Assembly: GCA_039714415.1 (NCBI GenBank) | Contig: JBDLJL010000002.1 | Location: forward strand, 14,269 to 78,268 | Reading direction: 5' to 3' | From: Bacteroidota bacterium | GTDB taxonomy: Bacteria > Bacteroidota > Bacteroidia > Bacteroidales > NBLH01 | Length of the DNA stretch: 64,000 bases | Shown: piece after piece, positions 6,417 through 25,080 of the stretch | How positions within the stretch are numbered: position 1 is the first letter of the stretch | Layout of the letters: each line of letters begins with the position of its first letter | The notes under the pieces: model-generated | Seen by the model: the letters and a program-made list of their open reading frames with translations, nothing else | What the model was told of the DNA's origin: nothing | Databases searched by the model: none | Position numbers and translations under genes: made by a program

Positions 6417-7424
6417 ATGAGTAAAATTTTTCTTAGAACAGTAATTCTTGGGGGTTTCTTATTTTTCGGTTTTAATATTGTATTCTCACAGGATACAATT
6501 AAAAATGAAAAACACACCTATGTAAGATGGGTAAGTCAATTCCCATCTGTCAAAAAAGAAAAACAGGAATTTTCTAAACGCATTTCGAAGGTTATTTTTG
6601 GAAAAGAACCTCTTTTTTTAAAAAAGCCGTTTAATGTGATCGCTAAAAACCCAAATGATTTCTGGATATTGGATCAGGGAAGAGGAGGTATTGTTCATAT
6701 AAAAAAAAGTTCTGCTGAAATCCCCAGGTTTATTTTAAAAGAATTAGAAGGCTTTACTTCGTTGGTTGGGGTTTCTTCAATTGATGATGGGAAAATTTTA
6801 ATTACAGATTCTCATTTAGATAATGTTTACCTGATAGATTTATTAAAAAAGAAAATAATACCATTAAATGAGGCTCTTATACTAAAACGCCCAACCGGTA
6901 TTGCTTATTCTAAGATTACTGACGAAATTTGGGTGGTAGAAACTGGTTCACATAGTATTTGTGTATTAAATCGAGAAGGAGAGATTCTAAAAAGAATAGG
7001 TCAAAGAGGTAAAGGTCCCGGCGAATTTAATTTCCCTACATTTATATGGATTGACAAGTTAGGTAATGCATATATAGTGGATTCTATGAATTTTAGGATT
7101 CAAATATTTAATAAACAAGGTGAGTTCGTAACTACATTTGGCCAAATTGGAGATGCTTCAGGCTATTTTTCACGACCCAAAGGAATTGCTACAGACTCTT
7201 TTGGAAATATTTATGTGGCCGATGCTTTATTTCATGTGGTTCAAATTTTTGATAAATCTGGTAGATTTTTATACCGATTTGGTCAACAAGGAAATGGCAA
7301 AAGTGAGTTTTGGATGCCTACGGGAATATTTATTGACGAAAAAAACTATATTTATGTGGCAGATAGTTATAATTCCAGGGTACAGGTTTTTCAATTAGTT
7401 ACAAGTGAAAAAGGGGAAAAGTAA
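6417..7424 (+). CDS. Secreted NHL-repeat (6-bladed beta-propeller type) protein
   Basis: It has a signal peptide. Repeated units of the form G.G.GEF.FP..I..D..GN.YV.DS.N.RIQ.F occur, for example GKGPGEFNFPTFIWIDKLGNAYIVDSMNFRIQIFN. Confidence 0.8.
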   Translation: MSKIFLRTVILGGFLFFGFNIVFSQDTIKNEKHTYVRWVSQFPSVKKEKQEFSKRISKVIFGKEPLFLKKPFNVIAKNPNDFWILDQGRGGIVHIKKSSAEIPRFILKELEGFTSLVGVSSIDDGKILITDSHLDNVYLIDLLKKKIIPLNEALILKRPTGIAYSKITDEIWVVETGSHSICVLNREGEILKRIGQRGKGPGEFNFPTFIWIDKLGNAYIVDSMNFRIQIFNKQGEFVTTFGQIGDASGYFSRPKGIATDSFGNIYVADALFHVVQIFDKSGRFLYRFGQQGNGKSEFWMPTGIFIDEKNYIYVADSYNSRVQVFQLVTSEKGEK

Positions 7425-7451
7425 TTAATAGAGGTTAGCTTAAGTTTCAGC

Positions 7452-7487
7452 GACCAACAAGTGGGTTATTTAACCCATTTATTGGTC
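7452..7487. promoter_or_regulatory. Composite palindrome GACCAA-caag-TGGGTTA-tt-TAACCCA-ttta-TTGGTC between the NHL gene and the 12-heme cytochrome gene
   Basis: Read directly. It is not followed by a T run, so it may be either a protein-binding site or a weak terminator. Confidence 0.4.
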
Positions 7488-7694
7488 AAATACCACAAAT
7501 AATTAATAACTGAATAGCTGCTTTTTTAAATACGGAATTAATGATTGGCGAAGATAAAACTTTTTTTACTATTCATAATCAAGTGATTGAAGTTCAAGAG
7601 TTTTTTTTTAATATATTTATTTCATGACAACTATTAAAATCTATTGATTAGGCATTATATATGTGTAATGCTGTTTAGTTTAAAGGTGTATATA

Positions 7695-9401
7695 ATGAAA
7701 AAATTAACAATTAATATATTCTTTATTTTAATATTGTCATCAGGGTTCATAAGTGCTCAATCAGTTATTAGCAGTCTTCATAATTTATCAGTAAGTGGTT
7801 CCGGGACAGTGAAAGCCACTGCAGAATCAGAAGTCTGTTTATTTTGTCATACACCACACAGTTCAAACCCATTAGGACCTTTATGGAACAGAAATGATCC
7901 TGGCTCTACTTATATTATATATGACAATACAATAAGTAGTACTTTTATCGCTATTCCCGGACAACCTGATGGAAGCGCTTTACTTTGCCTTTCATGCCAT
8001 GATGGAACAATTGCCATGGGTAATGTTCTTAGTAGAAGTACAGAAATTGCTATGGCTGGTGGATTTACAACAATTCAGGGACAAAAAAACCTTACAACTG
8101 ACTTATCAGATGACCATCCTGTATCATTTGTTTATAATTCTGCCTTAGCTGCTGCCGATGGTCAGTTAAAATTTCCGCCGGAACATCCCGTAATATTAGA
8201 TAATAATAGTAAGCTACAGTGTACATCTTGTCATGATCCACACAAAAATACATATAAACAGTTTCTGCGGGTATCCAACCAATTCTCAGCATTATGTTTT
8301 AATTGTCATGATAGAAATTATTGGTCAGCATCCAGCCATCAAAGTTCAGTTGCAACATGGAGTGGTGCAGGTATAAACCCGTGGGCACATATTGAAACCC
8401 CTTATCCTAATGTAGCTGAAAATGCATGTCAAAATTGTCATAGCCCACATACTGCTTCTGGCAAAGCTCGTTTGTTGAAATCTGGTTTTGAAGAAAACAA
8501 TTGTTTGGATTGCCATAATGGTAATGTGGCTGCTACCAATATAGAAACTGAATTTAATAAAGCATATCGTCATAATGTATTTGCTTACAACCAGCTTCAT
8601 GATCCACAGGAAAATGCTGATCCTGATGTGATGCATGTTGAATGTGTGGACTGTCATAACCCTCATGCTGTTAATAATTCCACGGCAAATGCGCCAAATG
8701 CAAATGGGTTTTTAGCAGGAGTACGTGGAATTAATCAAGCTGGAATTCCGGTTAATGTGATCCAGTATGAATATGAATTATGTTATCGTTGCCATGCAGA
8801 TAATGCAGTAGTTGCCAGTCCAACTAACAGACAAATTGATTTAAACGACAATAATGTACGTCTTGAATTTGATGTAGCTAACCCATCATATCACCCCATT
8901 GGTGGCGCTGGTCAGAATACTAATGTCCCAAGTTTAATATCTCCATTAAACGAATCCAGTATTATTTATTGCACAAGCTGTCATGCAAGTGATGGAACAA
9001 GCTCACCTGCAGGGCCACATGGTTCAATTTATCCCAGTATCTTGAAATATAGATATGAAACAACAGATTATACCATTGAATCATCTTCAAACTATGAACT
9101 TTGTTACTCCTGCCATAGTCGCGCTTCTATTTTGAATGATGAGTCGTTTATACATTCCGTGCACCTTTTAGATCCTAATAATAGAAATAATCAGACAACT
9201 TGTAATACTTGTCATGACCCGCATGGAATAGACAATAGTCAGGGTAATAGCACTAATAATTCTAATTTAATAAATTTTGACCTTACTATAGTTTTACCAA
9301 ATGGCACAGGAACATTGGAATTTGTTGATACCGGTACTTTTAGTGGTTATTGTGTTTTGCGTTGCCATAATAGGGGGCATAGTGCTGGAATGAGTTATTA
9401 A
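7695..9401 (+). CDS. Secreted multiheme c-type cytochrome with 11 CXXCH plus 1 C-terminal CX3CH (start taken at MKKLTINIFF)
   Basis: Motifs in order: CLFCH, CLSCH, CTSCH, CFNCH, CQNCH, CLDCH, CVDCH, CYRCH, CTSCH, CYSCH, CNTCH, then CVLRCH. The N-terminal CH..H...PLWNR / LCLSCHDGT paired-CXXCH style is present. Confidence 0.88.
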   Translation: MKKLTINIFFILILSSGFISAQSVISSLHNLSVSGSGTVKATAESEVCLFCHTPHSSNPLGPLWNRNDPGSTYIIYDNTISSTFIAIPGQPDGSALLCLSCHDGTIAMGNVLSRSTEIAMAGGFTTIQGQKNLTTDLSDDHPVSFVYNSALAAADGQLKFPPEHPVILDNNSKLQCTSCHDPHKNTYKQFLRVSNQFSALCFNCHDRNYWSASSHQSSVATWSGAGINPWAHIETPYPNVAENACQNCHSPHTASGKARLLKSGFEENNCLDCHNGNVAATNIETEFNKAYRHNVFAYNQLHDPQENADPDVMHVECVDCHNPHAVNNSTANAPNANGFLAGVRGINQAGIPVNVIQYEYELCYRCHADNAVVASPTNRQIDLNDNNVRLEFDVANPSYHPIGGAGQNTNVPSLISPLNESSIIYCTSCHASDGTSSPAGPHGSIYPSILKYRYETTDYTIESSSNYELCYSCHSRASILNDESFIHSVHLLDPNNRNNQTTCNTCHDPHGIDNSQGNSTNNSNLINFDLTIVLPNGTGTLEFVDTGTFSGYCVLRCHNRGHSAGMSY

Positions 9402-9443
9402 TTATGAAAAAAGCTGTATGAAATAAGTCTCGATTTTTTCGGG

Positions 9444-9512
9444 TCGGTTCTTCCGCAGAAGCGGAGGCTATATGGCAAATAGAATAATGAAAAAATAAAC
9501 AGATGAAACAAG
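9444..9512. repeat. About 70-bp intergenic element, copy 1 (GGTTCTTCCGC ... GGCTATATGG ... AAAAAATAAACAGATGAAA)
   Basis: Matches 26441-26513 by eye at roughly 75 percent. A shortened third copy lies at 9566-9616. Confidence 0.7.
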
Positions 9513-9607
9513 CATGTAAAAAATAATTATTTATTTACACACACGAAAATGATTATTTTTTTCATGCGGTTCCATCCGACAAATTGAAATAATTAAAAAA
9601 TTAACGG

Positions 9608-11080
9608 ATGAAAAAATTCTTTTCTTTTAGATTCAAAATGACCATTGTACTGCTGGTTGTCATTGTATCAATTTCATTTGTTTCCTTTTTTCTTTATAAT
9701 CGTTATCTCACTAAAAAAATATATAGTAATGCCGAAGAAAATATAGTTAGTATCCTGCATTTAGTTAAGGATCAGTACTATCTGTCAAAGCATGATACAT
9801 CAAGCACATTTAATATACTAAAAAAAATTGAAGAGCATAATTGGGTTCTAAAAACATGTTTAGCAAATTCTAAAGGAAATATTTTGTATACCTCTAAAGC
9901 AAAATATCCCTTGTGTGAAATACCAGACACAAAAAAGTTATTATCCCTGACAAAAGAAGTTACTTTGGAATCACATATATATAATAATGAACCATATACC
10001 CGGATATATATGAAAATGGAAAATTCACCGAGCTGTTATGAATGTCATAGTTCGGAGATAAAAACAATTGGATATTTGGTATATGATATTTCTATGACTG
10101 GGGCAGAAAAGAATAAAGTGTTTTTATTAAAATTTACTCTTTTTAATACCATTTTTTTGGTTTTAATCATTGGACTGGTTATTAGCTTGATGCATTATAA
10201 ATTTGTTCGAAAATCATTAATGCATTTTCAAATTAAGATAGAAAAGATAAATAGAGGTAATTTGGATGAACGCATTGTTATTCCGCATACAAAAGAACTG
10301 GGACAACTTGGAGAGCATTTTAACAAGATGTTAGATAAGTTTCAAAAAACCCGAAAAGAACTTTTATTTTGTCATAAAAAAGAATTACGAAACAATAAAA
10401 AGCTTGCAACAGTTGGTGAAATGGCTGCCAGGTTAGCACATGAAATTAGAAATCCAATAACCGGAATAGCTAATGCGATAGAAATTATTGCTGATGAGAT
10501 ACCTGATAAGCAGAACAGGCCTATTTTGGAAGAAATTCAACGACAAGCAAATAGGGTTAATGATGCGATTTCGAAACTTCTTATATATTCCCGTGCTTCG
10601 GAATTGGATACAAAGGATTGTAATATTAATGAGTTGGTTAAATCTTTGGCGTTCTTTTTAAAAAATCAGAATCACAATAAAAGAATTAAATTTTTAGCAG
10701 ATTTGGAGGATGATATTCCGAACTTTTATATTGATCAGGGAAAAATTGAAAATGCACTTTTAAACCTGGGTTTAAATGCTGTACAAGCAATAAAAAAACA
10801 GGGCATAGTTACCTTTAAAACAAATTATGATGCTGCTAAAAATATCATAATGGTTAATGTTCAAGATACCGGATCAGGAATTTCGAATGAAATATTACCA
10901 AAAATTTTCAGCCCCTTTTTTACGACACGAACTGAGGGAACAGGTTTAGGCCTGGCAATTGTTAAGGATATTGTTGAAAAGCATCAAGGTAAGATTTGGG
11001 TTGAAAAAAACATAAAAAAAGGCAGTGTATTTACAATTTTATTGCCCATTATTGAGAAAGAAGAACTAATAAATATCTGA
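9608..11080 (+). CDS. Sensor histidine kinase with a periplasmic CXXCH (putative c-heme) sensor domain, HAMP, HisKA and HATPase_c
   Basis: Two TM segments flank a domain of about 150 aa containing SPSCYECHSSEIKTIGYLVYDIS. The H-box is AHEIRNPITGI and the G-box is GTGLGLAIVKDIVEKHQG. Confidence 0.85.
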   Translation: MKKFFSFRFKMTIVLLVVIVSISFVSFFLYNRYLTKKIYSNAEENIVSILHLVKDQYYLSKHDTSSTFNILKKIEEHNWVLKTCLANSKGNILYTSKAKYPLCEIPDTKKLLSLTKEVTLESHIYNNEPYTRIYMKMENSPSCYECHSSEIKTIGYLVYDISMTGAEKNKVFLLKFTLFNTIFLVLIIGLVISLMHYKFVRKSLMHFQIKIEKINRGNLDERIVIPHTKELGQLGEHFNKMLDKFQKTRKELLFCHKKELRNNKKLATVGEMAARLAHEIRNPITGIANAIEIIADEIPDKQNRPILEEIQRQANRVNDAISKLLIYSRASELDTKDCNINELVKSLAFFLKNQNHNKRIKFLADLEDDIPNFYIDQGKIENALLNLGLNAVQAIKKQGIVTFKTNYDAAKNIIMVNVQDTGSGISNEILPKIFSPFFTTRTEGTGLGLAIVKDIVEKHQGKIWVEKNIKKGSVFTILLPIIEKEELINI

Positions 11081-11118
11081 TCATGCTGTGAAACTATTTC
11101 TAATTTTAACCTAAACAC

Positions 11119-12492
11119 ATGAAGTTATTGAAAATATTGGTAATTGATGACGAAAAATTAATTCGCTGGTCTTTTGAAAAACAACTAAGCTCAAAAGGAT
11201 ATAAGGTATATACAGCTGAAACGGGTGAGGAAGGAATGAAATTATTTGAATTACATTATCCGGATTTGGTATTTGTAGACAGCCGTTTGCCGGGAATGCA
11301 GGGGTTAGAAGTAATATCCAGAATTAAATCTATAGATGATGATGTTATCCTAATTTGTATGACTGCATTTGGATCAATTGAAATGGCTGTTGAGGCAATG
11401 AAATTAGGGGCATTTGAATATTTAAAAAAACCGTTTTCTTTTGATGAAATTGATATAATAATTAACAACGTAAATAAGAAGATTAATATAGATAAGGAAA
11501 TTCAGTTGCTTAGAAGACAACAAACTGATAAGTTGACCTTTGACGATATTGTTTGTGAGTCAGAAAGCATCAAAAATATTATTGACCTTTTGAAAAAAAT
11601 ATCAAAAACAGATGCTACGACTATTTTACTTTTAGGTGAAAGTGGAACAGGGAAAGATATATTTGCCAGGGCTATTCATAATGAGAGTAATCGAAAAGAT
11701 AAATCTTTTGTTGATATTAATTGTTCATCATTACCGGAAACTTTATTGGAAAGTGAACTGTTTGGTTATGAGAAAGGTGCGTTTACTGATGCAAAAAAAC
11801 TTAAAAAGGGACTTTTCGAAATTGCAGAAAACGGCACTGTTTTTTTAGATGAAATTGGTGAAGTAAATCTTGCTACACAAGTTAAACTATTAAGTGTGCT
11901 TGAAAACAGATATGTTCGTCGCTTAGGAGGGACTCAGAACATTCCTGTAAATGTACGTATCATTGCAGCAACAAATAAAAATTTAGAAGAGGCTATTGCT
12001 GAAAAGACTTTTAGGGTTGATTTGTATTATAGGTTAAAGGTGTTTCAAATTACTTTACCCCCTTTAAATAAACGCAAAGAAGATATTGTTGCCCTAACTA
12101 ATTATTTTTTGGATATTTTTAATGCTCAATTTCGTAAAAAGATTAAGAGTATCGCCCCTAAAACAAAACAAATATTAATGCATTATAACTGGCCGGGAAA
12201 TGTAAGAGAATTAAAAAACGTCATGGAACGTGCAATTATATTGGAATCAAATGATAAATTAACTGCTAAAAACCTACCTGTTGAAATAAGAAACATCCAA
12301 CCTACCATTGAAAAAGTTAAAAATATCTATCATTTTGAAATTCCGGATGAAGGTATTTCATTAACAGAGTTGGAGAAACAGGTTATTATCCAGGCTTTAA
12401 AAAAAGCAGAGAATAACCAAACTAAAGCTTCAAAATTACTTGGAATTTCAAGGGATACCCTAAGGTATAAACAAAAAAAATACAAGATATAA
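11119..12492 (+). CDS. Sigma54-dependent response regulator (NtrC family: REC, AAA+, Fis-type HTH)
   Basis: The REC domain carries DLVFVDSRLPGMQG. Walker A is GESGTGKD, the sigma54-contact loop is GAFTDA (a variant of GAFTGA), and the C-terminal HTH is KASKLLGISRDTLRYKQKKY. Confidence 0.9.
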   Translation: MKLLKILVIDDEKLIRWSFEKQLSSKGYKVYTAETGEEGMKLFELHYPDLVFVDSRLPGMQGLEVISRIKSIDDDVILICMTAFGSIEMAVEAMKLGAFEYLKKPFSFDEIDIIINNVNKKINIDKEIQLLRRQQTDKLTFDDIVCESESIKNIIDLLKKISKTDATTILLLGESGTGKDIFARAIHNESNRKDKSFVDINCSSLPETLLESELFGYEKGAFTDAKKLKKGLFEIAENGTVFLDEIGEVNLATQVKLLSVLENRYVRRLGGTQNIPVNVRIIAATNKNLEEAIAEKTFRVDLYYRLKVFQITLPPLNKRKEDIVALTNYFLDIFNAQFRKKIKSIAPKTKQILMHYNWPGNVRELKNVMERAIILESNDKLTAKNLPVEIRNIQPTIEKVKNIYHFEIPDEGISLTELEKQVIIQALKKAENNQTKASKLLGISRDTLRYKQKKYKI

Positions 12493-12500
12493 ATGATCGC

Positions 12501-12537
12501 AGGGGCATTTAACCCAAACATTAGGGGCATTTACCCC
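12501..12537. promoter_or_regulatory. Two direct copies of AGGGGCATTTA(A/C)CCC spaced 22 bp apart, a candidate upstream activator site
   Basis: Read directly at 12501-12515 and 12523-12537. They lie about 230-250 bp upstream of the -24/-12-like box at 12753. Confidence 0.35.
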
Positions 12538-12752
12538 ACCTCATATTGAATTTATTTATCCATTCCTTTTTAGTTTATTTAACATGATAAAATAATCTTG
12601 TTAAAATTTATTGATTGCCAGGCGATTATCAGTTATATTAATTCAAATAAATTCACAATTAGTTAATATCAAAATATTATTTAAAAAGAGTTAACTTTCC
12701 AAATTGTCTTAAATATTTTTTAATTATCACATGTTCAGTCATATAGCCCTTT

Positions 12753-12768
12753 TGGTATATTGTTTGGA
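12753..12768 (+). promoter_or_regulatory. Weak -24/-12 (sigma54-like) box TGGTAT-ATTGT-TTGGA upstream of the tetraheme cytochrome gene
   Basis: GG and TTG have the canonical spacing, but the -12 element reads GG instead of GC. The box lies 45 nt before ATG 12813. Confidence 0.3.
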
Positions 12769-12812
12769 TTAATTAATATGCCTTCTATTTATTAATTAAA
12801 ACTATAACTAAT

Positions 12813-13439
12813 ATGAAAAAAATTCATTTAATTCTCTCTCTGTTTTTTTTATTTGCTTTTGCAAATTTCAGTTTTGGGCAAATTATTGGCTCAGGACATG
12901 ATTTTTCAGGTAATGCCTGGGCAAATAATAGGATTTGTATTGTTTGTCATACCCCTCATAATGGTACAGCTATGGCAAATGCGCCTTTGTGGAACAGGGA
13001 ATTGTCTGCAACAGCAACTTATACCATGTATAGTTCACTAACTTTTGATGGTGCTGCCTCGGCTGTTGACCCTATTGCTACTTCATCTTCAAACTCAAGG
13101 TTATGCCTCAGTTGCCACGATGGTACTGTAGCACTAGAAAACTTTGGAGGGGTAACAACCGGAACAACATTTATTACCGGTAGTGCAAACATAGGGACCG
13201 ACTTGAGTAATGATCATCCTATTTCATTTACCTATGATGATGCATTGTCAACTACAGATCCCGGATTGTGGCAACCAAGTACAACAGCTGCCTTAGGGGG
13301 GACAATTCAATCTGAAATGTTGTTTGGAGATCAGTTAGAATGTGCTTCTTGTCATAATGTGCATGATAATACCAATGGTTTCTTCTTAAGAATGGACAAT
13401 ACTGGTAGCGCCTTATGTTTAACTTGTCATAACAAATGA
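12813..13439 (+). CDS. Secreted tetraheme c-type cytochrome, paralogous to the N-terminal module of the 12-heme protein
   Basis: Motifs are CIVCH, CLSCH, CASCH and CLTCH. It shares GSGHDF..CIVCHTPH...APLWNR and LCLSCHDGT..DLSNDHPISF with 7695-9401. Confidence 0.88.
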   Translation: MKKIHLILSLFFLFAFANFSFGQIIGSGHDFSGNAWANNRICIVCHTPHNGTAMANAPLWNRELSATATYTMYSSLTFDGAASAVDPIATSSSNSRLCLSCHDGTVALENFGGVTTGTTFITGSANIGTDLSNDHPISFTYDDALSTTDPGLWQPSTTAALGGTIQSEMLFGDQLECASCHNVHDNTNGFFLRMDNTGSALCLTCHNK

Positions 13440-13464
13440 TAATGCTGAGGATTTAATTTTCTGG

Positions 13465-13491
13465 AAAGGCGGTTTTGAATCGCCTTTTTTT
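13465..13491 (+). terminator. Intrinsic terminator or attenuator after the tetraheme gene
   Basis: The stem is AAAGGCG / CGCCTTT with a 9-nt loop, followed by a T run. Confidence 0.55.
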
Positions 13492-13510: not shown

Positions 13511-14584
13511 ATGAACAATAAAATAAAAACATCAATTTTACTCATCTTTTTTTTTATTTTTCTGACTTCTTGCATAAAAGATGCAAGTTCCAGCTTAACA
13601 CAGGAAGATTACATTTTTTTCCCTTCACCACCTGATACTGCAAGAATTCAGTTTCTGACCAGTATAAATAGTTCACTTGATATTGAGGGGGATCAATCAG
13701 GTATAAATAAACTTGTTTTTGGGGAAGCCAAACCTAATTCAATTGTTAAACCATATGGTGTAGTAATGCATAATGGTAAAATATATGTATGCGATACAGG
13801 CATAAAAGGAATTGTAATTATTGATTTGGCTTTGAATACCTTTGAGTATTTTATTCCCGAAGGTAAAGGTAGGTTAATGCTGCCACTGAGTTGTTTTGTG
13901 GACAATGACGGTAAATTGTTTGTAGCAGATGGTAACCGTAAACAAATAGTTGTTTTTGATAAAACAGGCAAATATATTCATGCGTTTGGTGAACCTGAAA
14001 ATTTTAAGCCGACAGATGTATTTGTAACAAAGGATAAAATTTGGGTAGCCAATGTAAAAAACCACCATATAAATGTTTATAAAAATGATTCAACTTTCCA
14101 GTCGTTATATTATTTCCCTGAAATTGAACATGGATCAGAAGCCTTTCTAAATCAACCTACAAACATAAAAGTGGTAAATGACAAAGTTTATGTTACAGAT
14201 TTTGGAAGCTTCAAAGTCAAAATGTATCACTCGGATGGAAGTTTTATCGGGTCAATTGGTAGTTATGGAAAAGGTCTTGGGCAATTTGTTAGGCCAAAAG
14301 GAATTGCACTTGATAGAGAATCAAACCTTTACGTTGTTGACGCTGCTTTTGAAAATATTCAGATTTTTAACAAAAATAAACAACTTTTAATGTTTTTTGG
14401 TGGTGGTTATAGTGGTGCAGGAAGCATGTCATTACCGGCAAAAGTTGATATAAATTATGAAAACATAAAGTATTTTGAGCCATATGTAGATCCTCTGTAC
14501 CAAATTAAATATTTAATACTTGTAACAAATCTTTATGGAGGCAACAAGCTAAATATTTATGCCCGTGTTGAGCCTAAAGGATAA
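13511..14584 (+). CDS. NHL-repeat lipoprotein
   Basis: The lipobox is LTSC. NHL units include GKGLGQFVRPKGIALDRESNLYVVDAAFENIQIFN and LFVADGNRKQIVVFDKTGK. Confidence 0.75.
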   Translation: MNNKIKTSILLIFFFIFLTSCIKDASSSLTQEDYIFFPSPPDTARIQFLTSINSSLDIEGDQSGINKLVFGEAKPNSIVKPYGVVMHNGKIYVCDTGIKGIVIIDLALNTFEYFIPEGKGRLMLPLSCFVDNDGKLFVADGNRKQIVVFDKTGKYIHAFGEPENFKPTDVFVTKDKIWVANVKNHHINVYKNDSTFQSLYYFPEIEHGSEAFLNQPTNIKVVNDKVYVTDFGSFKVKMYHSDGSFIGSIGSYGKGLGQFVRPKGIALDRESNLYVVDAAFENIQIFNKNKQLLMFFGGGYSGAGSMSLPAKVDINYENIKYFEPYVDPLYQIKYLILVTNLYGGNKLNIYARVEPKG

Positions 14585-14597
14585 ACCAATACCTTGA

Positions 14598-15440
14598 ATG
14601 CAAAAGAACAGTGGAAAATATTTATTCTTTCTTTTTGTTTTAATAAGCTCTTATTTTATAGCTTGTTCACCACAAAAAAGTTATAAGGTATTATCGTTTT
14701 TATTTGATGGTGTTCCGGAACCTTCGCCTGATAAGTTGGTTGAATTAAATGATACAGTTTATCAGACTGATAGTGTTGTAATTGCTTCAAATAGGATTTC
14801 GCAACCATTAATGTTTTACCATTCCCCTTATAAGAAAAAAGAATGTACTATTTGTCATGATCGAAATTCCATGGATAAAACGGTTGAACCCCAACCTAAA
14901 CTTTGCTATAAGTGTCATGACAACTATAATGATAAATTCGAGTTTATTCATGGCCCGGTAGGTGGTGGGTATTGTACTTCGTGTCATAATGCTCATAAAT
15001 CCAAATCTGATCATTTACTTTTAAGGTCTTCTCAACAGTTGTGCATACACTGTCATGATTCTATTTTGGTTTTTAAAAACAGGTATCATTTAAACAATGA
15101 TATATCAAATTGTATAGAATGCCATAACCCTCATGGTGGTGAAAACAGGTACATGCCTGAAAAAGGTTCCTGTTATAAATGTCATGAAAAATACAATGAA
15201 AAATTTAGCTATCTGCATGGCCCTGTGGCCGGTGAATATTGCACAACCTGTCATAGCCCGCATATGACTAAAACAAAAAAACTATTAATAATGCAAGGTT
15301 CTTCATTGTGTTTAAATTGCCATAACAAAGAATTGATTTTTGAAAGTGATCATCATAAAAATGTAGATAAGACTTGTATTGATTGTCATGATCCACATGG
15401 AGGTGAAGACAGGTTATTTATAAAAAATAAAACTCAATGA
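14598..15440 (+). CDS. Nonaheme c-type cytochrome lipoprotein (1 + 4 + 4 CXXCH, two c7/c3-like tetraheme units)
   Basis: The lipobox is IAC. Motifs are CTICH, CYKCH, CTSCH, CIHCH, CIECH, CYKCH, CTTCH, CLNCH and CIDCH. An internal duplicate is visible: CYKCH..YN.KF...HGPV.G.YCT.CH. Confidence 0.88.
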   Translation: MQKNSGKYLFFLFVLISSYFIACSPQKSYKVLSFLFDGVPEPSPDKLVELNDTVYQTDSVVIASNRISQPLMFYHSPYKKKECTICHDRNSMDKTVEPQPKLCYKCHDNYNDKFEFIHGPVGGGYCTSCHNAHKSKSDHLLLRSSQQLCIHCHDSILVFKNRYHLNNDISNCIECHNPHGGENRYMPEKGSCYKCHEKYNEKFSYLHGPVAGEYCTTCHSPHMTKTKKLLIMQGSSLCLNCHNKELIFESDHHKNVDKTCIDCHDPHGGEDRLFIKNKTQ

Positions 15441-15444
15441 ATAA

Positions 15445-17406
15445 TTGATGGGTAGGAAGCTTATATATATCATTTTATTTTTATTATTCTATGCAGATGG
15501 TATAGCTCAAAAGCCTATTGTTTCATTGGGGACATGGAAGCTAACTAAACTATATGGCGACTTTAATTTACACAGTTTTTATAGAGGAAATGAACGATCT
15601 TTTAATCAAAATTATGAATTTCATCAAAGTGGTTATTTTTCAGGGGGGCTGTGTTTAAAAACGAGAAGTTATTTTTGGGATCCTAATTTTATAACACTTG
15701 ACGTAAATGCTGAGTATAGTCCTGAAACAGGCAATGAATTTTACCTTAATATTCCTGATCGTTCAGAAGTAAGAACTCTAAAAAGACTGGATTTAAGAAC
15801 CTCAATATTCAAAAAGAATAGTCTTTCACTAAATGCTTTTGCTAATTTAAACCAAAGTATTAATAACCGGGAACTTTTAACCAGCCTAAAATCAGAAAAT
15901 AAAAGATGGGGCGGGATGTTATCATACAGGAACAAGGCACTTCCATTTACCCTTACATATAAAGAAAATTTGTGGGATCAGGAAGAAATTGCTTCAAGAA
16001 GAGTGTTCAAAATGAATCAGAAAAACTTTATGGCCAGAACTTCAAAATCCTTTTCTGATTATGATTCACACGAATTAAATTATGCTCATAATGTATATTC
16101 CCGGCAGGATGGTGATATGCAACCTATTGAAAACAATATTGATCAGATATTTTTGAAAAACAGGGTCTATTTTGATACTCAAAAGAAATATGTTTTCAGA
16201 TCGTTGATTACGGATTTTATTCAAAAAGGGAATAATGAATATAAAAGATTCCAGGTAAATGAACAATTGTTCTTAAAATTACCCCAAAAACTCTCATTAA
16301 CTGCTAATTATCAATATTACAATTTACAACAAACATCACAAAGTTTAAATCAAAACAGGCTTAAGGCCACCCTTGGCCATCAATTATTTTTAAGTTTAAA
16401 TACAAATGTGTATTATGAATATTTCAAACTTAGGCATTCCTTTTATGATGAGGCAAATACCCGGGCTGGAATAGACCTTACTTACTCAAAAAAAATACCT
16501 AAAGGTCATTTTACCCTTGCCTATAAATACTACAGGCATTACCAGGTCATGGATGCCCAAAATACTTTCATTAATGAAATAAATGAAGAACATGTTTTAT
16601 CAGATGGTCAAATTGTATTATTAAACAGACCTTATATTGATCCTGCAACAATTATTGTAAAAGATATTACCGGGACAATTATATTTCAACGTGATTTCGA
16701 CTATATTTTAATTGAAAGGAATAATTTTATTGAAATTCAACGTTTACCTGGTGGTCAAATTCCTAATAATGAAATTGTATACATTGATTATACCGCTGTT
16801 CAACCAGGCTCATATCAGTATGATGCCAATAATAATGCCTTATCAGCAAACATTATCTTATTTAACCGATTAATCGAACTGTATTTCCGGGCTTCAAAGC
16901 AAGAGTATTCAAGCTTAATAAACGTGGATCATATTACCTTAAATCGCTATACACAAACTTTAGTAGGTGGTAAAGTTGATGTTGGTTTTGCAATTGCCGG
17001 AATTGAATATGATAATTACAATAGCAATATTATTCCCTACCGTATGGTAAGATATTATATCAATCTTCAAAAAACTTTCTATAAAAGGCTTTTATGTTCT
17101 TTAAATGGGAATATTAGGGATTATGAAAAAACAACAGATAAAATACCACAACAATTTTCTGATATTTCGGGGAAAATCATTTATCGGTTTAAATTAAGAT
17201 CAAAAATCTCTTTGGAAGGAGCTTACCGAAAACAACAAGGTGATGGAATTGATTTGGATTTATTTACAGGAAGGAGTGAGTTTGAAACAAAATACCGGCA
17301 AATGATTTTTAAAGTTGGTATGAATATGTATCGTCGGAATAATATCGGTAATAAAACTGTTTTTAACAGTGTTTATGGTAAAATTATAAGAAAATTTAAA
17401 TTATAA
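15445..17406 (+). CDS. Putative outer-membrane beta-barrel (porin-like) protein of the cytochrome conduit
   Basis: It has a signal peptide (LFYADGIAQ), is 653 aa and is rich in Y/N/R/K. Alternating hydrophobic strands run to the C-terminus (IFKVGMNMYRR ... TVFNSVYGKIIRKFKL). It lies 4-8 nt from the flanking cytochrome genes. There is no recognisable enzymatic motif. Confidence 0.5.
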   Translation: MMGRKLIYIILFLLFYADGIAQKPIVSLGTWKLTKLYGDFNLHSFYRGNERSFNQNYEFHQSGYFSGGLCLKTRSYFWDPNFITLDVNAEYSPETGNEFYLNIPDRSEVRTLKRLDLRTSIFKKNSLSLNAFANLNQSINNRELLTSLKSENKRWGGMLSYRNKALPFTLTYKENLWDQEEIASRRVFKMNQKNFMARTSKSFSDYDSHELNYAHNVYSRQDGDMQPIENNIDQIFLKNRVYFDTQKKYVFRSLITDFIQKGNNEYKRFQVNEQLFLKLPQKLSLTANYQYYNLQQTSQSLNQNRLKATLGHQLFLSLNTNVYYEYFKLRHSFYDEANTRAGIDLTYSKKIPKGHFTLAYKYYRHYQVMDAQNTFINEINEEHVLSDGQIVLLNRPYIDPATIIVKDITGTIIFQRDFDYILIERNNFIEIQRLPGGQIPNNEIVYIDYTAVQPGSYQYDANNNALSANIILFNRLIELYFRASKQEYSSLINVDHITLNRYTQTLVGGKVDVGFAIAGIEYDNYNSNIIPYRMVRYYINLQKTFYKRLLCSLNGNIRDYEKTTDKIPQQFSDISGKIIYRFKLRSKISLEGAYRKQQGDGIDLDLFTGRSEFETKYRQMIFKVGMNMYRRNNIGNKTVFNSVYGKIIRKFKL

Positions 17407-17414
17407 CCATTATT

Positions 17415-19610
17415 ATGGAAGGATTTCTGTTTTCACTATTAATATGGGCTTCAAGTTTGAATCCTAATTTGGCAAATCAGGCCAATGTAAATGATATTTC
17501 CTTTTCTGAAACAAGCTATAATTATTTGGCTCAAAATACTTTAGTTGAAAATAATTGTATAGAATGTCATGAGGATGTTTTGGAATTAAAGAGAAAACAC
17601 AAAGCTGCTACAGAGGGCTGTGATAAATGCCATACGCCTAATGGAAAAGAACACCCGCTTGAGGGTGTTAAAGGCTTTTCCTTAAGCCAAAAGATTCCTG
17701 CACTGTGCTTATCTTGCCACGATAGCTTAAATTTCAAGAAAAACTTACATCAACCATCAAAAGATGGGAAATGTATTGATTGTCATTCACCACATAGCTC
17801 AAAATACAAGAACTTGTTAATTGAAAAAAAGAGTGCGAATTTGTGTAAAAAATGCCATGACCTGGAGATAAAGGAAAAGGATGTGGTACACAATCCTGTT
17901 AAAGGTGGTAGGTGTCATAAATGCCATGATCCTCATCAATCTGATTTTGATTCGTTTTTGAAAAACGACATGCCCGCTTTATGTTACCGGTGCCACGATG
18001 GCGTTGCCGAAGAAATGAAATTAAAAAGGCTGCATGCCCCTGCCAAAGAAGATTGCTTCAAATGCCATGATCCGCACAATTCTAAAGAAAGTTATTTGCT
18101 TAATGATACCATCCCTACATTGTGCTATTCATGCCATACAGATATAAAAACGAAAAAAAATATACACCAACCTGCCGGTGATGGAAAATGTAAGGACTGT
18201 CATGCCACCCATGGTTCCAAAAATAAGAAGTTGTTAAAACAAAAGAAGTCAGTAAATCTGTGTAAGGAATGCCACCAACTGGAAATAAAGGAAAAGGATG
18301 TGGTACATAATCCCGTTAAAGGTGGTAGGTGCCATAAATGCCATAATCCGCACCAATCCGATTTTGATTCGTTTTTGAAAAACGATATGCCATCTTTATG
18401 TTACAGGTGCCATGATGGTGTTGCCGAAGAAATGAAATTAAAAAGGGTGCATACAGCAGCCAAAGAAAATTGTTTAGGCTGCCACAATCCGCATAATGCT
18501 AAAGAGAGTTATTTACTTCCTGACACTATTCCAAACTTATGTTATTCTTGTCACCAGGATAAGAAAACGAAAAAAAACATTCATAAATCTTCTGTTGACG
18601 GAAAATGTAGTAGTTGTCATGTTACCCATGGTTCAAAAAACAAAAATTTGCTAAGAGAGAAGAAATCAGTAAATTTATGTAAGGAATGTCATCAACTGGA
18701 TATTCCTAAAGGAAATGTGGTACATAATCCTGTTAAAGGTGGCAGGTGCCATAAATGTCATGATTCGCATCAATCTGATTTTGATTCGTTTTTGAAAAAC
18801 GATATGCCCGCTTTATGTTTCCGTTGCCATGATGGTGTCGCAGATGCTTTAAAAACTGATAACGTTCATAAACCAGCAAAGGAAGACTGCTTTAAATGTC
18901 ACGATGCGCATAATAATAAAGAAAGTTATTTACTTCCTGATTCTGTACCAAGTTTATGCTATAGTTGTCATAAAGATTTTCAAAAAAGTATAGAAGGTAC
19001 AGCATTAGTGCATCAGGCAGTAAAAAATCAGAAATCATGTTCAAATTGTCATTCACCACATGGTTCTGCTGAGAATAATTTTTTGAAGGCAAAAGAAAAA
19101 GAGCTATGTTTAAATTGTCATAATAAAACATACAAAACAGAATCCGGAATCATTGTAAATGTTAAAAAGCAAATAGAAAACGGTAAATCTGTACATGGAC
19201 CCGTTAATAACGGATGTGTAGTTTGTCACGACCCGCATTCTTCAAAAAACCCTAACTTAATGGTCGCAAACTTTCCGGTTGGTTCATATGCTGTAGCAAA
19301 CAAAGAAAATTTTGCATTATGTTTTAATTGCCATGATATTGAGATTCTTAAAAATGAACGAAGTAAAACAGTTACCAATTTTAGGGATGGTGATTTGAAC
19401 CTTCATTTTTTACATACCAATGGCAACCGGGGAAGAAACTGTACGACATGTCATAATATGCACGCCTCTAAAAATGAGCATTTAATAGAGGATAAAGTTA
19501 TGTATGGTAATTGGAAAATGCCCATGAAATTTATAAAATTAGAAAATGGAGGATCTTGTTTTCCGGGATGTCATTCAGAAGAAAAATATGACAGAACAAG
19601 AATATGGTAA
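17415..19610 (+). CDS. Giant multiheme c-type cytochrome, 26 CXXCH plus 1 C-terminal CX3CH
   Basis: The 26 CXXCH motifs were counted in the 731-aa translation, plus CFPGCH at aa 715-720. The sequence contains almost nothing but heme-binding units. Confidence 0.9.
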   Translation: MEGFLFSLLIWASSLNPNLANQANVNDISFSETSYNYLAQNTLVENNCIECHEDVLELKRKHKAATEGCDKCHTPNGKEHPLEGVKGFSLSQKIPALCLSCHDSLNFKKNLHQPSKDGKCIDCHSPHSSKYKNLLIEKKSANLCKKCHDLEIKEKDVVHNPVKGGRCHKCHDPHQSDFDSFLKNDMPALCYRCHDGVAEEMKLKRLHAPAKEDCFKCHDPHNSKESYLLNDTIPTLCYSCHTDIKTKKNIHQPAGDGKCKDCHATHGSKNKKLLKQKKSVNLCKECHQLEIKEKDVVHNPVKGGRCHKCHNPHQSDFDSFLKNDMPSLCYRCHDGVAEEMKLKRVHTAAKENCLGCHNPHNAKESYLLPDTIPNLCYSCHQDKKTKKNIHKSSVDGKCSSCHVTHGSKNKNLLREKKSVNLCKECHQLDIPKGNVVHNPVKGGRCHKCHDSHQSDFDSFLKNDMPALCFRCHDGVADALKTDNVHKPAKEDCFKCHDAHNNKESYLLPDSVPSLCYSCHKDFQKSIEGTALVHQAVKNQKSCSNCHSPHGSAENNFLKAKEKELCLNCHNKTYKTESGIIVNVKKQIENGKSVHGPVNNGCVVCHDPHSSKNPNLMVANFPVGSYAVANKENFALCFNCHDIEILKNERSKTVTNFRDGDLNLHFLHTNGNRGRNCTTCHNMHASKNEHLIEDKVMYGNWKMPMKFIKLENGGSCFPGCHSEEKYDRTRIW
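17697..18947 (+). repeat. Three tandem in-frame 417-bp (139-aa, hexaheme) repeat units inside the 27-heme gene
   Basis: CTGGA(G/A)ATAAAGGAAAAGGATGTGGTACA recurs at 17862 and 18279, and its diverged counterpart CTGGATATTCCTAAAGGAAATGTGGTACA lies at 18696 (period 417). Long stretches are near-identical at nucleotide level. Confidence 0.85.
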
Positions 19611-22600: not shown

Positions 22601-22732
22601 TATGCCTCTGGCGATCCTGTTCCTGTTCCAGCTTATGTTTATTATATCTTAGCTATAATTTTTATAATTTCAATAGTAGCATTTTTTAAAAATTCAAAGA
22701 CTAAAGAAGAAAAGGTTTCCATATCAGTATAA
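19604..22732 (+). CDS. ccsBA: Fused System II cytochrome c synthetase CcsBA (ResB-like N-terminus plus CcsA C-terminus); alternative start at 19631
   Basis: The ResB-type N-terminus is SMQTMAALLILYIIAMAVATFIEN. The C-terminal WWD motif is WGRYWGWDPKETWAL, with multiple TM segments. ATG 19604 overlaps the stop of the 27-heme gene (ATGGTAA). Confidence 0.85.
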   Translation: MVKYLNGIYMKRVYNVLISMQTMAALLILYIIAMAVATFIENDYGAPVSKHFVYNAWWFELIQFLLVVNMVGNVFKYKLYKKQKLSILLFHIAFIIILIGAGVTRYISFEGTMHIREGESSNKILSGTLLQMHLSSGDLQENYNTELFISPAVNTEFYHEFEINGKKVEVELKNIIPNPKETVVEVIDGKAIIDMVFASKQNMDNHFLKEKAILSHGGLSFTLNDESNGQSVKFYTENKKLYLLSSYNLSVLAMTGSELDTVLIAGEKHEIQLKQLYSIQNQKFVVTNFYEKARISYVPGDMRNGMQFFALEFDIKSGVSTKKAEIISAYGAVGYPASIQINEINVDLAYGAQEMILPFELKLRDFQLERYPGSESPSSYASEVTLLDEKNSIDMDYRIFMNNVLDYKGYRFFQSSYDRDEKGTILSVSKDKTGTMITYLGYFLLSLGMLWSLLNKNSYFIELLKRTGDIRDKRKGIATVILILLLFGTQNSFAQNTRQHIDAAHAKEFGKLFVQDNGGRIKPFNTLTNELLRKISRKEELLGLNSNQVYLGMIFNPVFWKDVKMIKIKNQELKDLLGVVGSYVSFNDLVNLEKNEYKLKSYVEMAFNKELSQRSKFDKDVITVDERLNISYQVLSGAYLKVFPIPDEINHKWLNPSGNKHIKDSVDRQFVAGVFSAYFNAVVASEKSGDWAKPNEILKSIKDFQMKYGSEIIPSETKLKLEVHYINADIFNRIYMYYGIIGFVFLIVLFVGILKPKMNIKIFTTLASILLGVLFLFHTYGLGLRWYISDHAPWSNGYESMIYIAWATMLAGFLFMKRSPITLAATSLLASITLMVAHLSWMNPEITNLVPVLKSYWLTIHVSVITASYGFLALAALLGFLSLILIILQTNKNKEQINLTIEEITNVNHMAIIVGLYLLTIGAFLGGVWANESWGRYWGWDPKETWALITIIVYSFVTHTRLIPFLNNRYTYNLLSLLSFSSVLMTYFGVNYYLSGLHSYASGDPVPVPAYVYYILAIIFIISIVAFFKNSKTKEEKVSISV

Positions 22733-25075: not shown

Positions 25076-25080
25076 TAGCT

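Follow-up and report, generated by a model that had tools for sequence, protein, structure and literature searches.

A predicted heme-c sensor kinase and its NtrC-type partner regulator in a putative OmcE-type nanowire gene cluster of Bacteroidota and Calditrichota

Within a 64,000-nucleotide stretch of a Bacteroidota genome assembly (referred to as the window), a sensor histidine kinase and a neighboring NtrC-type response regulator probably form a two-component system dedicated to an OmcE-type nanowire cluster. This assignment draws on the anatomy of both proteins, the homology of the kinase sensor domain to known heme-c sensors, the invariance of its CXXCH motif, the synteny of the surrounding genes, conserved DNA boxes and promoter-like elements, and the OmcE homology of the target gene. 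The genes and protein features concerned are given below, with the rest of the cassette beyond the OmcE-like gene spanning positions 13511-22732 of the plus strand.

6417-7424, plus strand: NHL beta-propeller protein 1 (Pfam NHL, 6-bladed propeller)
7695-9401, plus strand: multiheme cytochrome, 568 aa from ATG 7695, with 11 CXXCH and one CX3-4CH
9608-11080, plus strand: sensor histidine kinase, 490 aa (ORF, Pfam, hydropathy, H/N/G1/G2 boxes)
9698-10123, plus strand: periplasmic sensor domain, aa ~31-172, predicted Cache/PDC fold (AlphaFold, Foldseek, profile, hhalign)
10034-10048, plus strand: CYECH, aa 143-147, predicted covalent heme-c attachment site (family alignment, GSU0935 alignment)
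11119-12492, plus strand: NtrC-type sigma-54 enhancer-binding response regulator, 457 aa (Pfam, motifs)
11776-11793, plus strand: GAFTDA loop, regulator aa 220-225 (motif search)
12813-13439, plus strand: OmcE-like tetraheme cytochrome, 208 aa, signal peptide, predicted primary target gene (phmmer against the PDB)
13511-14584, plus strand: NHL propeller lipoprotein 2 (Pfam)
14598-15440, plus strand: 9-heme cytochrome
15445-17406, plus strand: putative outer-membrane barrel, 653 aa (barrel nature inferred)
17415-19610, plus strand: 26-27-heme cytochrome
19604-22732, plus strand: ResB-CcsA fused heme lyase (Pfam)
24080-26427, plus strand: Tat-signal 4Fe-4S protein (N-terminal RRKFLRSG) and NrfD-type membrane quinol-interacting subunit (Pfam), a probable electron entry module and predicted second target operon

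Judged by gene content, what a previous sequence-only reading had called a conduit matches an OmcE-type nanowire cluster, a point that this reading had missed. The 208-aa cytochrome retrieves the OmcE filament structures 7TFS (E 8.3e-30) and 9YUQ (E 1.5e-27) in phmmer searches of the PDB and carries four CXXCH motifs together with H29, H49, H135, and H184, as expected of a tetraheme OmcE subunit, while the N-terminal ~200 aa of the 7695 cytochrome are also OmcE-like (7TFS, E 2e-31 over aa 15-206). The two propellers (6417 and 13511), the cytochromes (7695, 14598, and 17415), and the inferred barrel, a protein with a signal peptide for which no Pfam match was found, reproduce the composition of OmcE clusters. 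The minimal OmcE cluster of Desulfuromonadia (bioRxiv 10.1101/2025.10.22.684050; PDB 7TFS, 9YUQ) shares with the window an OmcE homologue with four CXXCH and four His, two beta-propellers, extra multiheme cytochromes, a large putative barrel, and nearby resB/ccsB-type genes. Unlike this minimal cluster, the window cluster has a two-component system inserted, a second protein in which an OmcE-like domain is fused to 7-8 further hemes, and a 26-27-heme cytochrome. Neither Bacteroidota nor Calditrichota is among the five phyla listed for OmcE clusters (bioRxiv 10.1101/2025.10.22.684050).

The order NHL protein, multiheme cytochrome, histidine kinase, response regulator, OmcE-like protein, NHL protein, multiheme cytochrome, ~650-aa protein, and multiheme cytochrome is shared by the window and four further loci (L002, L008, L009, and L010). 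These five cassette loci cover Bacteroidota and Calditrichota, and the kinase/regulator pair occupies the same position in 5/5 of the long contigs; in L002, the closest relative, the kinase is broken by a frameshift. The suggestion that the circuit is island-encoded found no support in composition or in mobility genes. GC content is uniform (0.31-0.35 across the cluster versus 0.30-0.37 elsewhere in the window), no tRNA genes were found in the 64-kb window, neither a tRNA nor an integrase gene marks the cluster borders, and the flanks are housekeeping in nature (aroB, heptose epimerase, aspS, a tadA-like deaminase, futalosine hydrolase, and folE). The cassette flanks differ from genome to genome, an observation compatible with past transfer without proving it.

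The kinase consists of TM1, a predicted periplasmic heme-c sCache-type domain, TM2, HAMP (aa 211-245), HisKA (aa 270-331, including H278), and HATPase_c (aa 376-481), with HAMP, HisKA, and HATPase_c each scoring above the Pfam cut-off and the N, G1, and G2 boxes all present. The hydropathy profile has two TM peaks and no others, one at aa ~11-30 and one at ~176-196, and Lys/Arg clusters flank TM1 on its N-terminal and TM2 on its C-terminal side. Because of these two peaks and the positive-inside charge pattern, aa ~31-172 are assigned to the periplasm, the extracytoplasmic placement needed for c-type heme attachment. The domain carries exactly one CXXCH, the CYECH at aa 143-147. Both the complete two-TM histidine kinase proposed for the ORF at 9608-11080 and the single CYECH that the sequence-only reading had quoted in its context between the TM helices were thus confirmed.

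The family to which this sensor belongs is rare, with 31 cluster representatives among 1.84 billion proteins, and has been found in Bacteroidota and Calditrichota only. In a 25-sequence family alignment, in which identity to the window protein falls as low as 19%, C, C, and H of the CXXCH are the sole invariant columns, and every member long enough to reach the aligned site has exactly one CXXCH there; since these three residues alone are invariant, the CYECH is more than a chance occurrence. No conserved distal Met, His, or Cys was found in the same alignment. The AlphaFold model of the sensor domain (pLDDT 84.2, pTM 0.77) adopts a single Cache/PDC fold, for which Foldseek ranked 3B42 (GSU0935) first, followed by the sensors of WalK, KinD, CusS, CitA, and LuxQ, and weak matches to dCache_1 and sCache_4 were obtained for 11/25 and 5/25 family members, respectively. 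In the model, the CXXCH sits in a short helix/loop insertion after strand 101-111 and before the last strand, 126-135, corresponding to the location described for sCache_heme domains, namely a short helix/loop ahead of the last beta-strand (PMC12889525).

Profile comparisons point in the same direction. The best PDB match of the family profile was 3B42 (GSU0935, E 3.7e-5), with 3B47 (GSU0582) at E 0.049 and the CXXCH motifs aligned, and hhalign of the family against the GSU0935-type sensor gave a probability of 93.1% (E 3.2e-7), again matching the CXXCH to the CQSCH of GSU0935. PF21563 was matched by 18 of the 25 family members and DUF3365/Tll0287 by seven. The window protein itself falls outside Pfam membership for both families, scoring 14.7 bits against a cut-off of 24.1 for PF11845 and with PF21563 not reported at E<=1, and among eight relatives P0028 alone passes PF21563 (28.2 vs. 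27 bits). Despite these sub-cut-off scores, the profile and fold comparisons indicate that the sensor domain is homologous to GSU0935 and GSU0582, two heme-c sensors of Geobacter, and that within sCache_heme it stands nearer to the GSU0935/PF21563 branch than to DUF3365/Tll0287 proper. The resemblance to Geobacter-type heme-c sensors claimed earlier is therefore well founded, with the DUF3365-like label to be replaced by that of the GSU0935/PF21563 branch.

Heme c has been proven in GSU0582 and GSU0935, which undergo a redox-linked ligand switch and also bind NO and CO (PMC8396549), and the recently defined sCache_heme family, which also occurs in kinases, unites DUF3365/Tll0287 with the GSU0582/GSU0935 type (PMC12889525). 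Like the kinase sensor, the domains of GSU0935 and GSU0582 (PDB 3B42, 3B47; PF21563) are extracytoplasmic, lie between two TM helices, and have a Cache/PDC fold, and the CXXCH is found at nearly the same residue number (Cys140/Cys143/His144 in GSU0935 and 143/146/147 in the kinase). The differences are that their output is a chemoreceptor instead of a histidine kinase, that sequence identity to the kinase sensor is ~10-15%, that the kinase sensor family conserves no equivalent of Met60, the distal residue of GSU0935, and that the latter, unlike GSU0935 and GSU0582, always resides inside one cassette in Bacteroidota and Calditrichota. On these comparisons the kinase represents a rare divergent branch added to the newly defined sCache_heme family, and its heme is predicted to be attached covalently at CYECH with His147 as the proximal ligand; a CcsBA heme lyase gene is encoded within the same cluster.

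The partner of the kinase proved to be a complete NtrC-type activator, in agreement with the earlier proposal. It comprises a Response_reg domain (aa 6-113; PF00072, 95.8 bits) in which D10, D11, and D54 are present, a Sigma54_activat domain (aa 144-311; PF00158, 227.9 bits) with Walker A GESGTGK, Walker B FLDE, and the R-finger region RVDLYYRL, an AAA_lid_14 (PF25601, 90.6 bits), and an HTH_8 (aa 415-455; PF02954, 54.4 bits), and matches, at 100% identity, an NCBI MAG protein that carries the label Bacteroidota bacterium. The loop does read GAFTDA instead of GAFTGA, as had been noticed, but this is not a special feature and constitutes the norm of the clade, with GAFTDA in 118 of the 120 closest regulator homologues and GSFTDA in one more.

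Conserved DNA elements accompany the cassette genes:

7463-7476, no strand: perfect palindromic box GGGTTATTTAACCC, 5' of the 11-12-heme cytochrome gene, with a conserved counterpart in L002 (8031)
7650-7665, plus strand: weaker -24/-12-like element AGGCATTATATATGTG, ~30 nt 5' of ATG 7695, with an identical 16-mer in L002 (8217)
12502-12537, no strand: tandem palindromic boxes GGGGCATTTAACCC and GGGGCATTTACCCC, 22 bp apart, predicted enhancer (UAS; cross-locus conservation)
12753-12767, plus strand: sigma-54-like -24/-12 element TGGTATATTGTTTGG, 45 nt 5' of the OmcE-like gene (position and conservation)
13463-13489, plus strand: strong intrinsic terminator, 12-bp stem and T-run, closing the monocistronic OmcE-like unit
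23778-23813, no strand: box GGGCTATATGACCC and a degenerate second copy 22 bp downstream, 5' of the FeS/NrfD quinol module
23923-23937, plus strand: sigma-54-like element GGGTATAGTATTTGG, 5' of the 24080 operon

The boxes follow the pattern TGGGT-N6-ACCCA. The pair at 12502-12537 lies directly past the regulator stop codon, and tandem boxes 22-24 bp apart are found immediately 3' of the response regulator gene in all five loci. Four of the five box-pattern sites in the window lie inside three cassette intergenic regions that make up 1.7% of its length; the regions previously proposed for ChIP or EMSA (7425-7694, 12493-12812, and 23589-24079) were well chosen, as the conserved palindromic boxes sit exactly there. 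A -24/-12-like element is located 40-72 nt 5' of the OmcE-like start codon in 5/5 loci, the counterparts of TGGTATATTGTTTGG being found in L002 (13347), L008 (13041), L009 (13020), and L010 (9032, TGGCACCAAACTTGT). Across the five loci, which represent two phyla, the spacing is exact and the -24 half keeps to the canonical form (TGGCAC, CGGCAC, CGGCAT, TGGTAT), and the -12 half reads TTGT or TTGG, never the canonical TTGC. The tandem palindromes, which from sequence comparison are predicted to be enhancer sites, lie 120-250 bp 5' of the promoter-like elements in the five loci, an arrangement that would suit the Fis-type HTH of the regulator. No enrichment in the window was detected for the canonical TGGCAC-N5-TTGCW or for the relaxed pattern (3 observed, TGGTATATTGTTTGG among them, vs. 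3.8 expected), the latter being backed by position and cross-locus conservation. The conservation of AGGCATTATATATGTG is weaker evidence because the window and L002 genomes are closely related. A hairpin and T-run occur at the equivalent place in L002, L008, L009, and L010, so that the OmcE-like gene is followed by a terminator in all five loci.

Two known systems are instructive here. In PilS/PilR, the sigma-54 promoter of the pilin gene pilA is driven by a membrane-bound kinase together with an NtrC-type activator. The likeness, in that the gene for the filament subunit is short, monocistronic, and bounded by a terminator, is an analogy only, as neither the sensor domain nor the type of filament is related to that of the window system. 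BccR (GSU0598) of G. sulfurreducens, according to the passages that describe it, induces the cbcBA respiratory cytochrome operon as redox potential drops (bioRxiv 10.1101/2021.04.15.440034). Like the window regulator, BccR is there described with REC, sigma-54 interaction, and HTH domains and a gene adjoining a cytochrome operon. BccR itself reacts to redox conditions during extracellular respiration. The same passages describe no cognate sensor for BccR, whereas the window regulator has a partner kinase; they give as its target an inner-membrane bc-type quinol oxidoreductase, as opposed to a nanowire subunit homologue in another phylum, and the likeness is at the level of the shared family.

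A circuit can be proposed on this basis. Briefly, the periplasmic Cache/PDC domain would carry one c-type heme via Cys143/Cys146, with His147 as proximal ligand, which the cluster-encoded CcsBA heme lyase could attach. The distal heme position is probably labile, as in GSU0582 and GSU0935, and the family alignment lacks a conserved distal Met, His, or Cys. The sensor domain would therefore be remodelled when the heme changes state, be it that periplasmic cytochromes oxidise or reduce it or that a small molecule such as NO binds. The signal would then travel via TM2 and HAMP into the kinase core, which would set the phosphorylation of D54 in the regulator. We infer that HTH_8 would bind the tandem TGGGT-N6-ACCCA boxes, while the AAA+ ring with its GAFTDA loop would open sigma-54 promoters of the form YGGYAY-N5-TTGK. 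The clearest target would be the monocistronic OmcE-like tetraheme gene (12813-13439), apparently switched on, with the 11-12-heme OmcE-like fusion cytochrome (7695) and the FeS/NrfD quinol module (24080) as likely further targets.

As for the signal, the redox state of the periplasmic/extracellular electron chain is moderately favored over NO. With the same architecture and regulon, the sensor heme might instead detect NO or another diatomic gas, the cassette being induced or repressed by NO from denitrifiers or by nitrosative stress. This reading, which we regard as unlikely yet worth serious attention, has a precedent: the sole characterised signalling-associated sCache_heme protein, that of P. 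azotoformans, behaves as an NO sensor and not a redox sensor. Its affinity for NO is high and it does not form a stable oxy-complex, and the authors extend NO sensing to sCache_heme domains fused to signalling modules (PMC12889525). GSU0582 and GSU0935 bind NO in both redox states (PMC8396549), and a family with no visible conserved distal ligand fits an open or labile gas-binding site. However, the Geobacter homologues also show a redox-linked spin and ligand switch (PMC8396549), and BccR is a precedent for redox-potential-dependent sigma-54 control of cytochromes. In both phyla, moreover, the pair occurs solely within a cassette of the extracellular-electron-transfer type, whose products have no evident NO chemistry, and nor, nir, hcp, and nrf were not identified among the window genes scanned. 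Far less plausible is that the CXXCH binds no heme at all and serves as a periplasmic thiol/disulfide or metal-binding switch in an ordinary Cache sensor. The position of the window protein under the Pfam cut-offs of both heme-sensor families would agree with such a switch, but the His that follows the second Cys shows the same invariance as both cysteines, profile alignments with significant scores pair the motif position by position with the CQSCH that binds heme in GSU0935, and the motif is located in a family-specific insertion, with a heme lyase in the same cluster.

The promoter side of the proposed circuit faces an alternative of its own, in which GAFTDA weakens or abolishes the contact with sigma-54, the regulator works at the palindromic boxes in the classical manner, by activation or repression, and the GG-N10-TTGK elements are fortuitous or belong to another promoter class. 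The non-canonical -12 half, the lack of enrichment of the canonical pattern, and the absence of rpoN from the 46 window ORFs scanned, large ones included, speak for it, as does VfmH, a GAFTDA protein of Dickeya that did not pull down RpoN (PMC10714721). On the other hand, GAFTDA is listed among the motif variants expected to keep activator function and is carried by DVU2106 (PMC4641369). The 118/120 GAFTDA homologues retain Walker A/B, the R-finger region, and the lid, which would be costly if unused. The canonical -24 half and exact spacing in five loci and two phyla, together with boxes at an enhancer-like distance, also argue against sigma-54 independence. The promoter motif of the Bacteroidetes sigma-70-type is TAnnTTTG, and by eye the five-locus elements do not fit it. 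Taken together, we consider a sigma-54-independent regulator improbable.

Control of cytochrome-nanowire production is largely unknown, and the physiological role of these nanowires outside Geobacter is debated (PMC12954529). The locus described here offers a compact conserved candidate circuit consisting of sensor, activator, enhancer, promoter, subunit gene, and terminator, and hence a testable model for the regulation of electron-conducting filaments, and it places OmcE-type clusters in two phyla beyond the current survey (bioRxiv 10.1101/2025.10.22.684050). Because its genomic context argues for a redox role, the kinase branch is a useful test case for the redox-or-NO question in sCache_heme. 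More tentatively, the kinase may be a nanowire feedback sensor, the heme of which would be in redox contact with the multiheme chain of the cassette, report “electron back-pressure” (acceptor found or not), and tune the OmcE-like subunit via a sigma-54 switch with a deliberately weak -12. If this is true, a nanowire gene cluster with its own built-in regulatory circuit would have been described for the first time, and OmcE-type nanowires would extend to Bacteroidota and Calditrichota.

The kinase gene (9608-11080) and the regulator gene (11119-12492) have exactly the coordinates and description given by the sequence-only reading. The kinase comprises 490 aa with two hydropathy peaks (aa ~11-30 and ~176-196), each flanked on its cytoplasmic side by a Lys/Arg cluster, which places aa ~31-172 in the periplasm. 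The periplasmic CXXCH proposed earlier is indeed found there as a single CYECH at aa 143-147 (window 10034-10048). On the cytoplasmic side, the HAMP, HisKA and HATPase_c domains make up a complete kinase, with H278 and boxes N, G1 and G2 in place. On contig L002 (GCA_016937695.1), which belongs to the closest relative, a frameshift within an A7 run (~10640) of the HAMP region breaks the kinase (~10600-10760) into ORFs of 217 aa and 236/248 aa. The identical split recurs in L003-L005 (altogether two MAGs and two Logan assemblies); it could stem from a sequencing error in the homopolymer, mark a pseudogene or be a site of slippage.

Relatives of the sensor domain (kinase aa ~31-172) are rare. 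Word-indexed homology searches returned 2-3 of them, and an exhaustive HMMER profile search of 1.84 billion cluster representatives was required to retrieve just 31; a search for related loci with a 3-sequence sensor alignment yielded nothing beyond one already known MAG. Every relative of sufficient length carries a single CXXCH in the same place, and a 25-sequence alignment, in which identity to the window protein falls to 19%, has no invariant columns other than the C, C and H of the motif. The best PDB match of the family profile is 3B42, the periplasmic sensor of the chemotaxis protein GSU0935 (E 3.7e-5), followed at a distance by 3B47 from GSU0582 (E 0.049), with the CXXCH columns of the family and both matches lining up; hhalign gave a probability of 93.1% for the relation to the GSU0935 type. 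A confident AlphaFold model built from a deeper alignment (pLDDT 84.2, pTM 0.77) combines helices at the N-terminus with a sheet of five strands and places the CXXCH in a short helix/loop preceding the last of them. Foldseek searches with this model, from which a shallow model of single-sequence depth (pLDDT 62) was left out, ranked 3B42 first and 3B47 eleventh, the other top matches being the sCache/PDC sensor domains of the kinases WalK, KinD, CusS, CitA and LuxQ.

The sequence-only reading had rightly noted a resemblance to the Geobacter heme-c sensors; its naming of DUF3365 proved imprecise. The sensor domain alone scored 14.7 bits against PF11845 (Tll0287-like, formerly DUF3365), below the 24.1 cut-off, and the absence of Tll0287 (5B82) from the best 50 fold matches further down-weights an assignment to DUF3365 proper. 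Individual scans of the family matched PF21563 (Mcp40H-20_sensor) in 18/25 members, dCache_1 in 11/25 and PF11845 in 7/25, and one of eight relatives tested passed the PF21563 cut-off. Experiments have established GSU0582 and GSU0935 as heme-c proteins (Cys140/Cys143/His144 in GSU0935) that undergo a redox-linked high-spin/low-spin switch via distal Met60 and bind NO/CO reversibly (PMC8396549). A 2026 preprint merged these sensors with DUF3365/Tll0287 as "sCache_heme", found in kinases, chemoreceptors and c-di-GMP enzymes (PMC12889525). By sequence and predicted fold, the window domain is a divergent, kinase-linked branch of this known family, nearer to the GSU0935 type than to Tll0287, and is predicted to carry heme c. 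Unlike GSU0935 with its distal Met60, the window family has no conserved distal Met, and no conserved distal His or Cys either, in the 25-sequence alignment.

The partner is, as had been claimed, a complete NtrC-type activator with intact Walker A/B motifs: 457 aa with Response_reg (D54), Sigma54_activat (227.9 bits), AAA_lid_14 and HTH_8 domains. An NCBI MAG labelled Bacteroidota bacterium encodes a protein with 100% identity to it, and the presence of a SusC/RagA gene in the window is in keeping with that phylum. The loop of the regulator does read GAFTDA (aa 220-225), as noted earlier. This variant is no oddity, being shared by 118 of the 120 closest homologues, with GSFTDA in one more. A regulome study of D. 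vulgaris placed GAFTDA among the variants expected to maintain activator function and lists the GAFTDA-bearing DVU2106 in its Table 1 (PMC4641369), and a Dickeya study leaves the matter undecided for VfmH (PMC10714721).

The named members of the sensor family come from Bacteroidales and Calditrichota, Caldithrix abyssi MAGs among them. All long contigs retrieved (L002; L008, GCA_054013695.1; L009, an ENA metagenome contig; and L010, GCA_003695285.1, Calditrichota) share one gene order: NHL propeller, ~560-aa multiheme cytochrome (MHC), kinase, sigma-54 regulator, ~200-aa cytochrome, NHL propeller, ~190-aa cytochrome, ~650-aa Pfam-less protein and large MHC(s). The cytochromes of the window cassette carry, in order, 11-12, 4, 9 and 26-27 hemes, and on their 3' side lie a fused heme lyase, a divergent small gene and then a Tat-FeS/NrfD quinol module. 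The relevant features are as follows.

Features of the window cassette and its surroundings
7695-9401, 11-12-heme cytochrome; first ~200 aa OmcE-like (7TFS, E 2e-31), then ~360 aa with 7-8 more hemes
12813-13439, OmcE-like tetraheme cytochrome, 208 aa (7TFS, E 8.3e-30; 9YUQ, E 1.5e-27)
13463-13489, strong terminator 3' of the OmcE-like gene
15445-17406, Pfam-less protein, 653 aa, with signal peptide, Tyr/Phe/Asn-rich
17415-19610, cytochrome with 26 CXXCH and one CX3-4CH
19604-22732, fused ResB-CcsA (system II) heme lyase, 1042 aa
22890-23588, minus strand, lipoprotein-like ORF, 232 aa, weak OB-fold (tRNA_anti-codon) match
29549-30256, minus strand, futalosine hydrolase gene (menaquinone biosynthesis, futalosine route)

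With four CXXCH and four further His, the number expected of OmcE, the 208-aa protein is by sequence clearly homologous to the nanowire subunit OmcE. The 11-12-heme cytochrome probably starts at ATG 7695 (signal peptide MKKLTINIFF...) rather than at TTG 7644. A 2025 preprint defined a minimal OmcE cluster, in which two MHCs, two beta-propeller lipoproteins and a large beta-barrel protein accompany the OmcE subunit and resB/ccsB lie close by, and reported such clusters in five phyla, Bacteroidota and Calditrichota not among them (bioRxiv 10.1101/2025.10.22.684050). The window cassette fits this definition, differing in the inserted two-component system; the 653-aa protein, with counterparts of 613-661 aa at the same position in all loci, is presumably the putative large beta-barrel. 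The 7-nt overlap between the 26-27-heme cytochrome gene and the ResB-CcsA gene suggests that a dedicated maturation enzyme is co-transcribed with its heavy client load. The lipoprotein-like ORF sits on the opposite strand between both cytochrome operons, and the futalosine hydrolase gene lies a few kb away from the NrfD-type quinol module. Neither composition, tRNA genes nor mobility genes support the earlier designation of the region as an island; the neighbours of the cassette differ from genome to genome.

In the window, the cytochrome and kinase genes lie 206 bp apart; the spacer (9402-9607) contains an imperfect hairpin (CTTCCGCAGAAGCGGAGG) and lacks a box. In L008, L009 and L010 this distance is 7-18 nt and the kinase and regulator genes overlap, so the ancestral arrangement looks like a single NHL-MHC-HK-RR operon, possibly autoregulated (cf. 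the L010 boxes at 3075/3099).

Palindromic boxes (TGGGT-N6-ACCCA) occur at window positions 7463, 12502, 12524 and 23778, and position 23800 holds a degenerate copy. The pattern matches five times in the 64 kb: four matches fall within the three cassette intergenic regions (1.7% of the sequence), and the fifth (62165-62178, GGGTAAATATCCCC), within the SusC/RagA gene, is probably due to chance. All five loci have two or three boxes at 22-24 bp spacing, starting within ~10-15 bp of the regulator stop codon, and L010 has additional pairs upstream of the first cassette gene (3075/3099). A role as terminators of the regulator gene was ruled out: the boxes are tandem, with 2-4-nt loops and no T-run on the plus strand, box 23778 lies between divergent genes, and the L010 pairs at 3075/3099 precede operons that follow no gene end. 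In L008, a second kinase/sigma-54 regulator pair (19493-21518, minus strand) is located immediately downstream of the cassette, and a different palindrome (TTCGGCAATTTTGCCGAA) upstream of its first gene suggests additional regulatory input there.

The canonical sigma-54 pattern TGGCAC-N5-TTGCW, allowing up to two mismatches, gave 21 matches in the window versus 26 expected, none of them in the relevant intergenic regions, and was replaced by comparison across loci. In each of the five loci, this revealed a coding-strand YGGYAY-N5-TTGK element located ~120-250 bp further downstream than the boxes; the pattern has just three matches in the whole window.

Sigma-54-like elements
Window 12753-12767, TGGTATATTGTTTGG, upstream of the OmcE-like gene
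L002 13347, upstream of the OmcE-like gene
L008 13041, upstream of the OmcE-like gene
L009 13020, upstream of the OmcE-like gene
L010 9032, TGGCACCAAACTTGT, upstream of the OmcE-like gene
Window 23923-23937, second match, downstream of box 23778 and upstream of the FeS/NrfD operon

The distance to the OmcE-like start codon is 40-72 nt in the five loci, that of L008 being measured from the signal-peptide Met, to which its start was re-assigned. Both the spacing and the -24 half of these elements are of the canonical sigma-54 kind, and the -12 half reads TTGT or TTGG in place of TTGC in all five loci. The near-canonical TGGCAAAAAATTTGCA (TGGCAA-N5-TTGCA) upstream of the first cassette gene in L008 (7173-7188) indicates that this deviation is specific to these promoters and not genome-wide; a deliberate departure from the consensus at -12 might adjust basal silencing or the dependence on the activator. 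Bacteroidetes sigma-70-type promoters have the motif TAnnTTTG, which the elements do not match on reading, ruling out this identity. A hairpin with T-run occupies the place equivalent to the window terminator in 4/4 other loci, and element and terminator together make the monocistronic nanowire-subunit gene the best-defined predicted target.

In the proposed mechanism, the heme state of the sensor would set kinase activity, and phosphorylated regulator bound to the tandem boxes would switch on the OmcE-like gene, and probably neighbouring operons, through sigma-54. Searching the literature for control of omcE by sigma-54 or by a two-component system brought up no relevant report. That the regulator acts independently of sigma-54 is a minor rival; rpoN was not found among the 46 window ORFs scanned, large ones included. 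Another minor rival is a non-heme role of the CXXCH, the motif that lines up with that of GSU0935 and GSU0582.

The main rival concerns the signal, since the sensor heme may instead detect NO: of the characterized sCache_heme members, the signalling-associated one shows NO-sensor behaviour and the stand-alone one redox-type properties (PMC12889525). Redox state is nevertheless the favoured signal because the pair associates exclusively with an electron-transfer cassette, because the Geobacter homologues GSU0582/GSU0935 have a redox-linked ligand switch, and because BccR provides a precedent.

Taken together, the earlier interpretation was largely right, with imprecision as to family, GAFTDA loop, island status and signal. 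Kinase and regulator are both of known kinds; what is new is a rare, divergent sCache_heme kinase branch, the fixed place of this branch within a nanowire cluster of the OmcE type in two further phyla (Bacteroidota and Calditrichota), and an enhancer/promoter/terminator architecture, predicted from sequence, that is conserved around the subunit gene.
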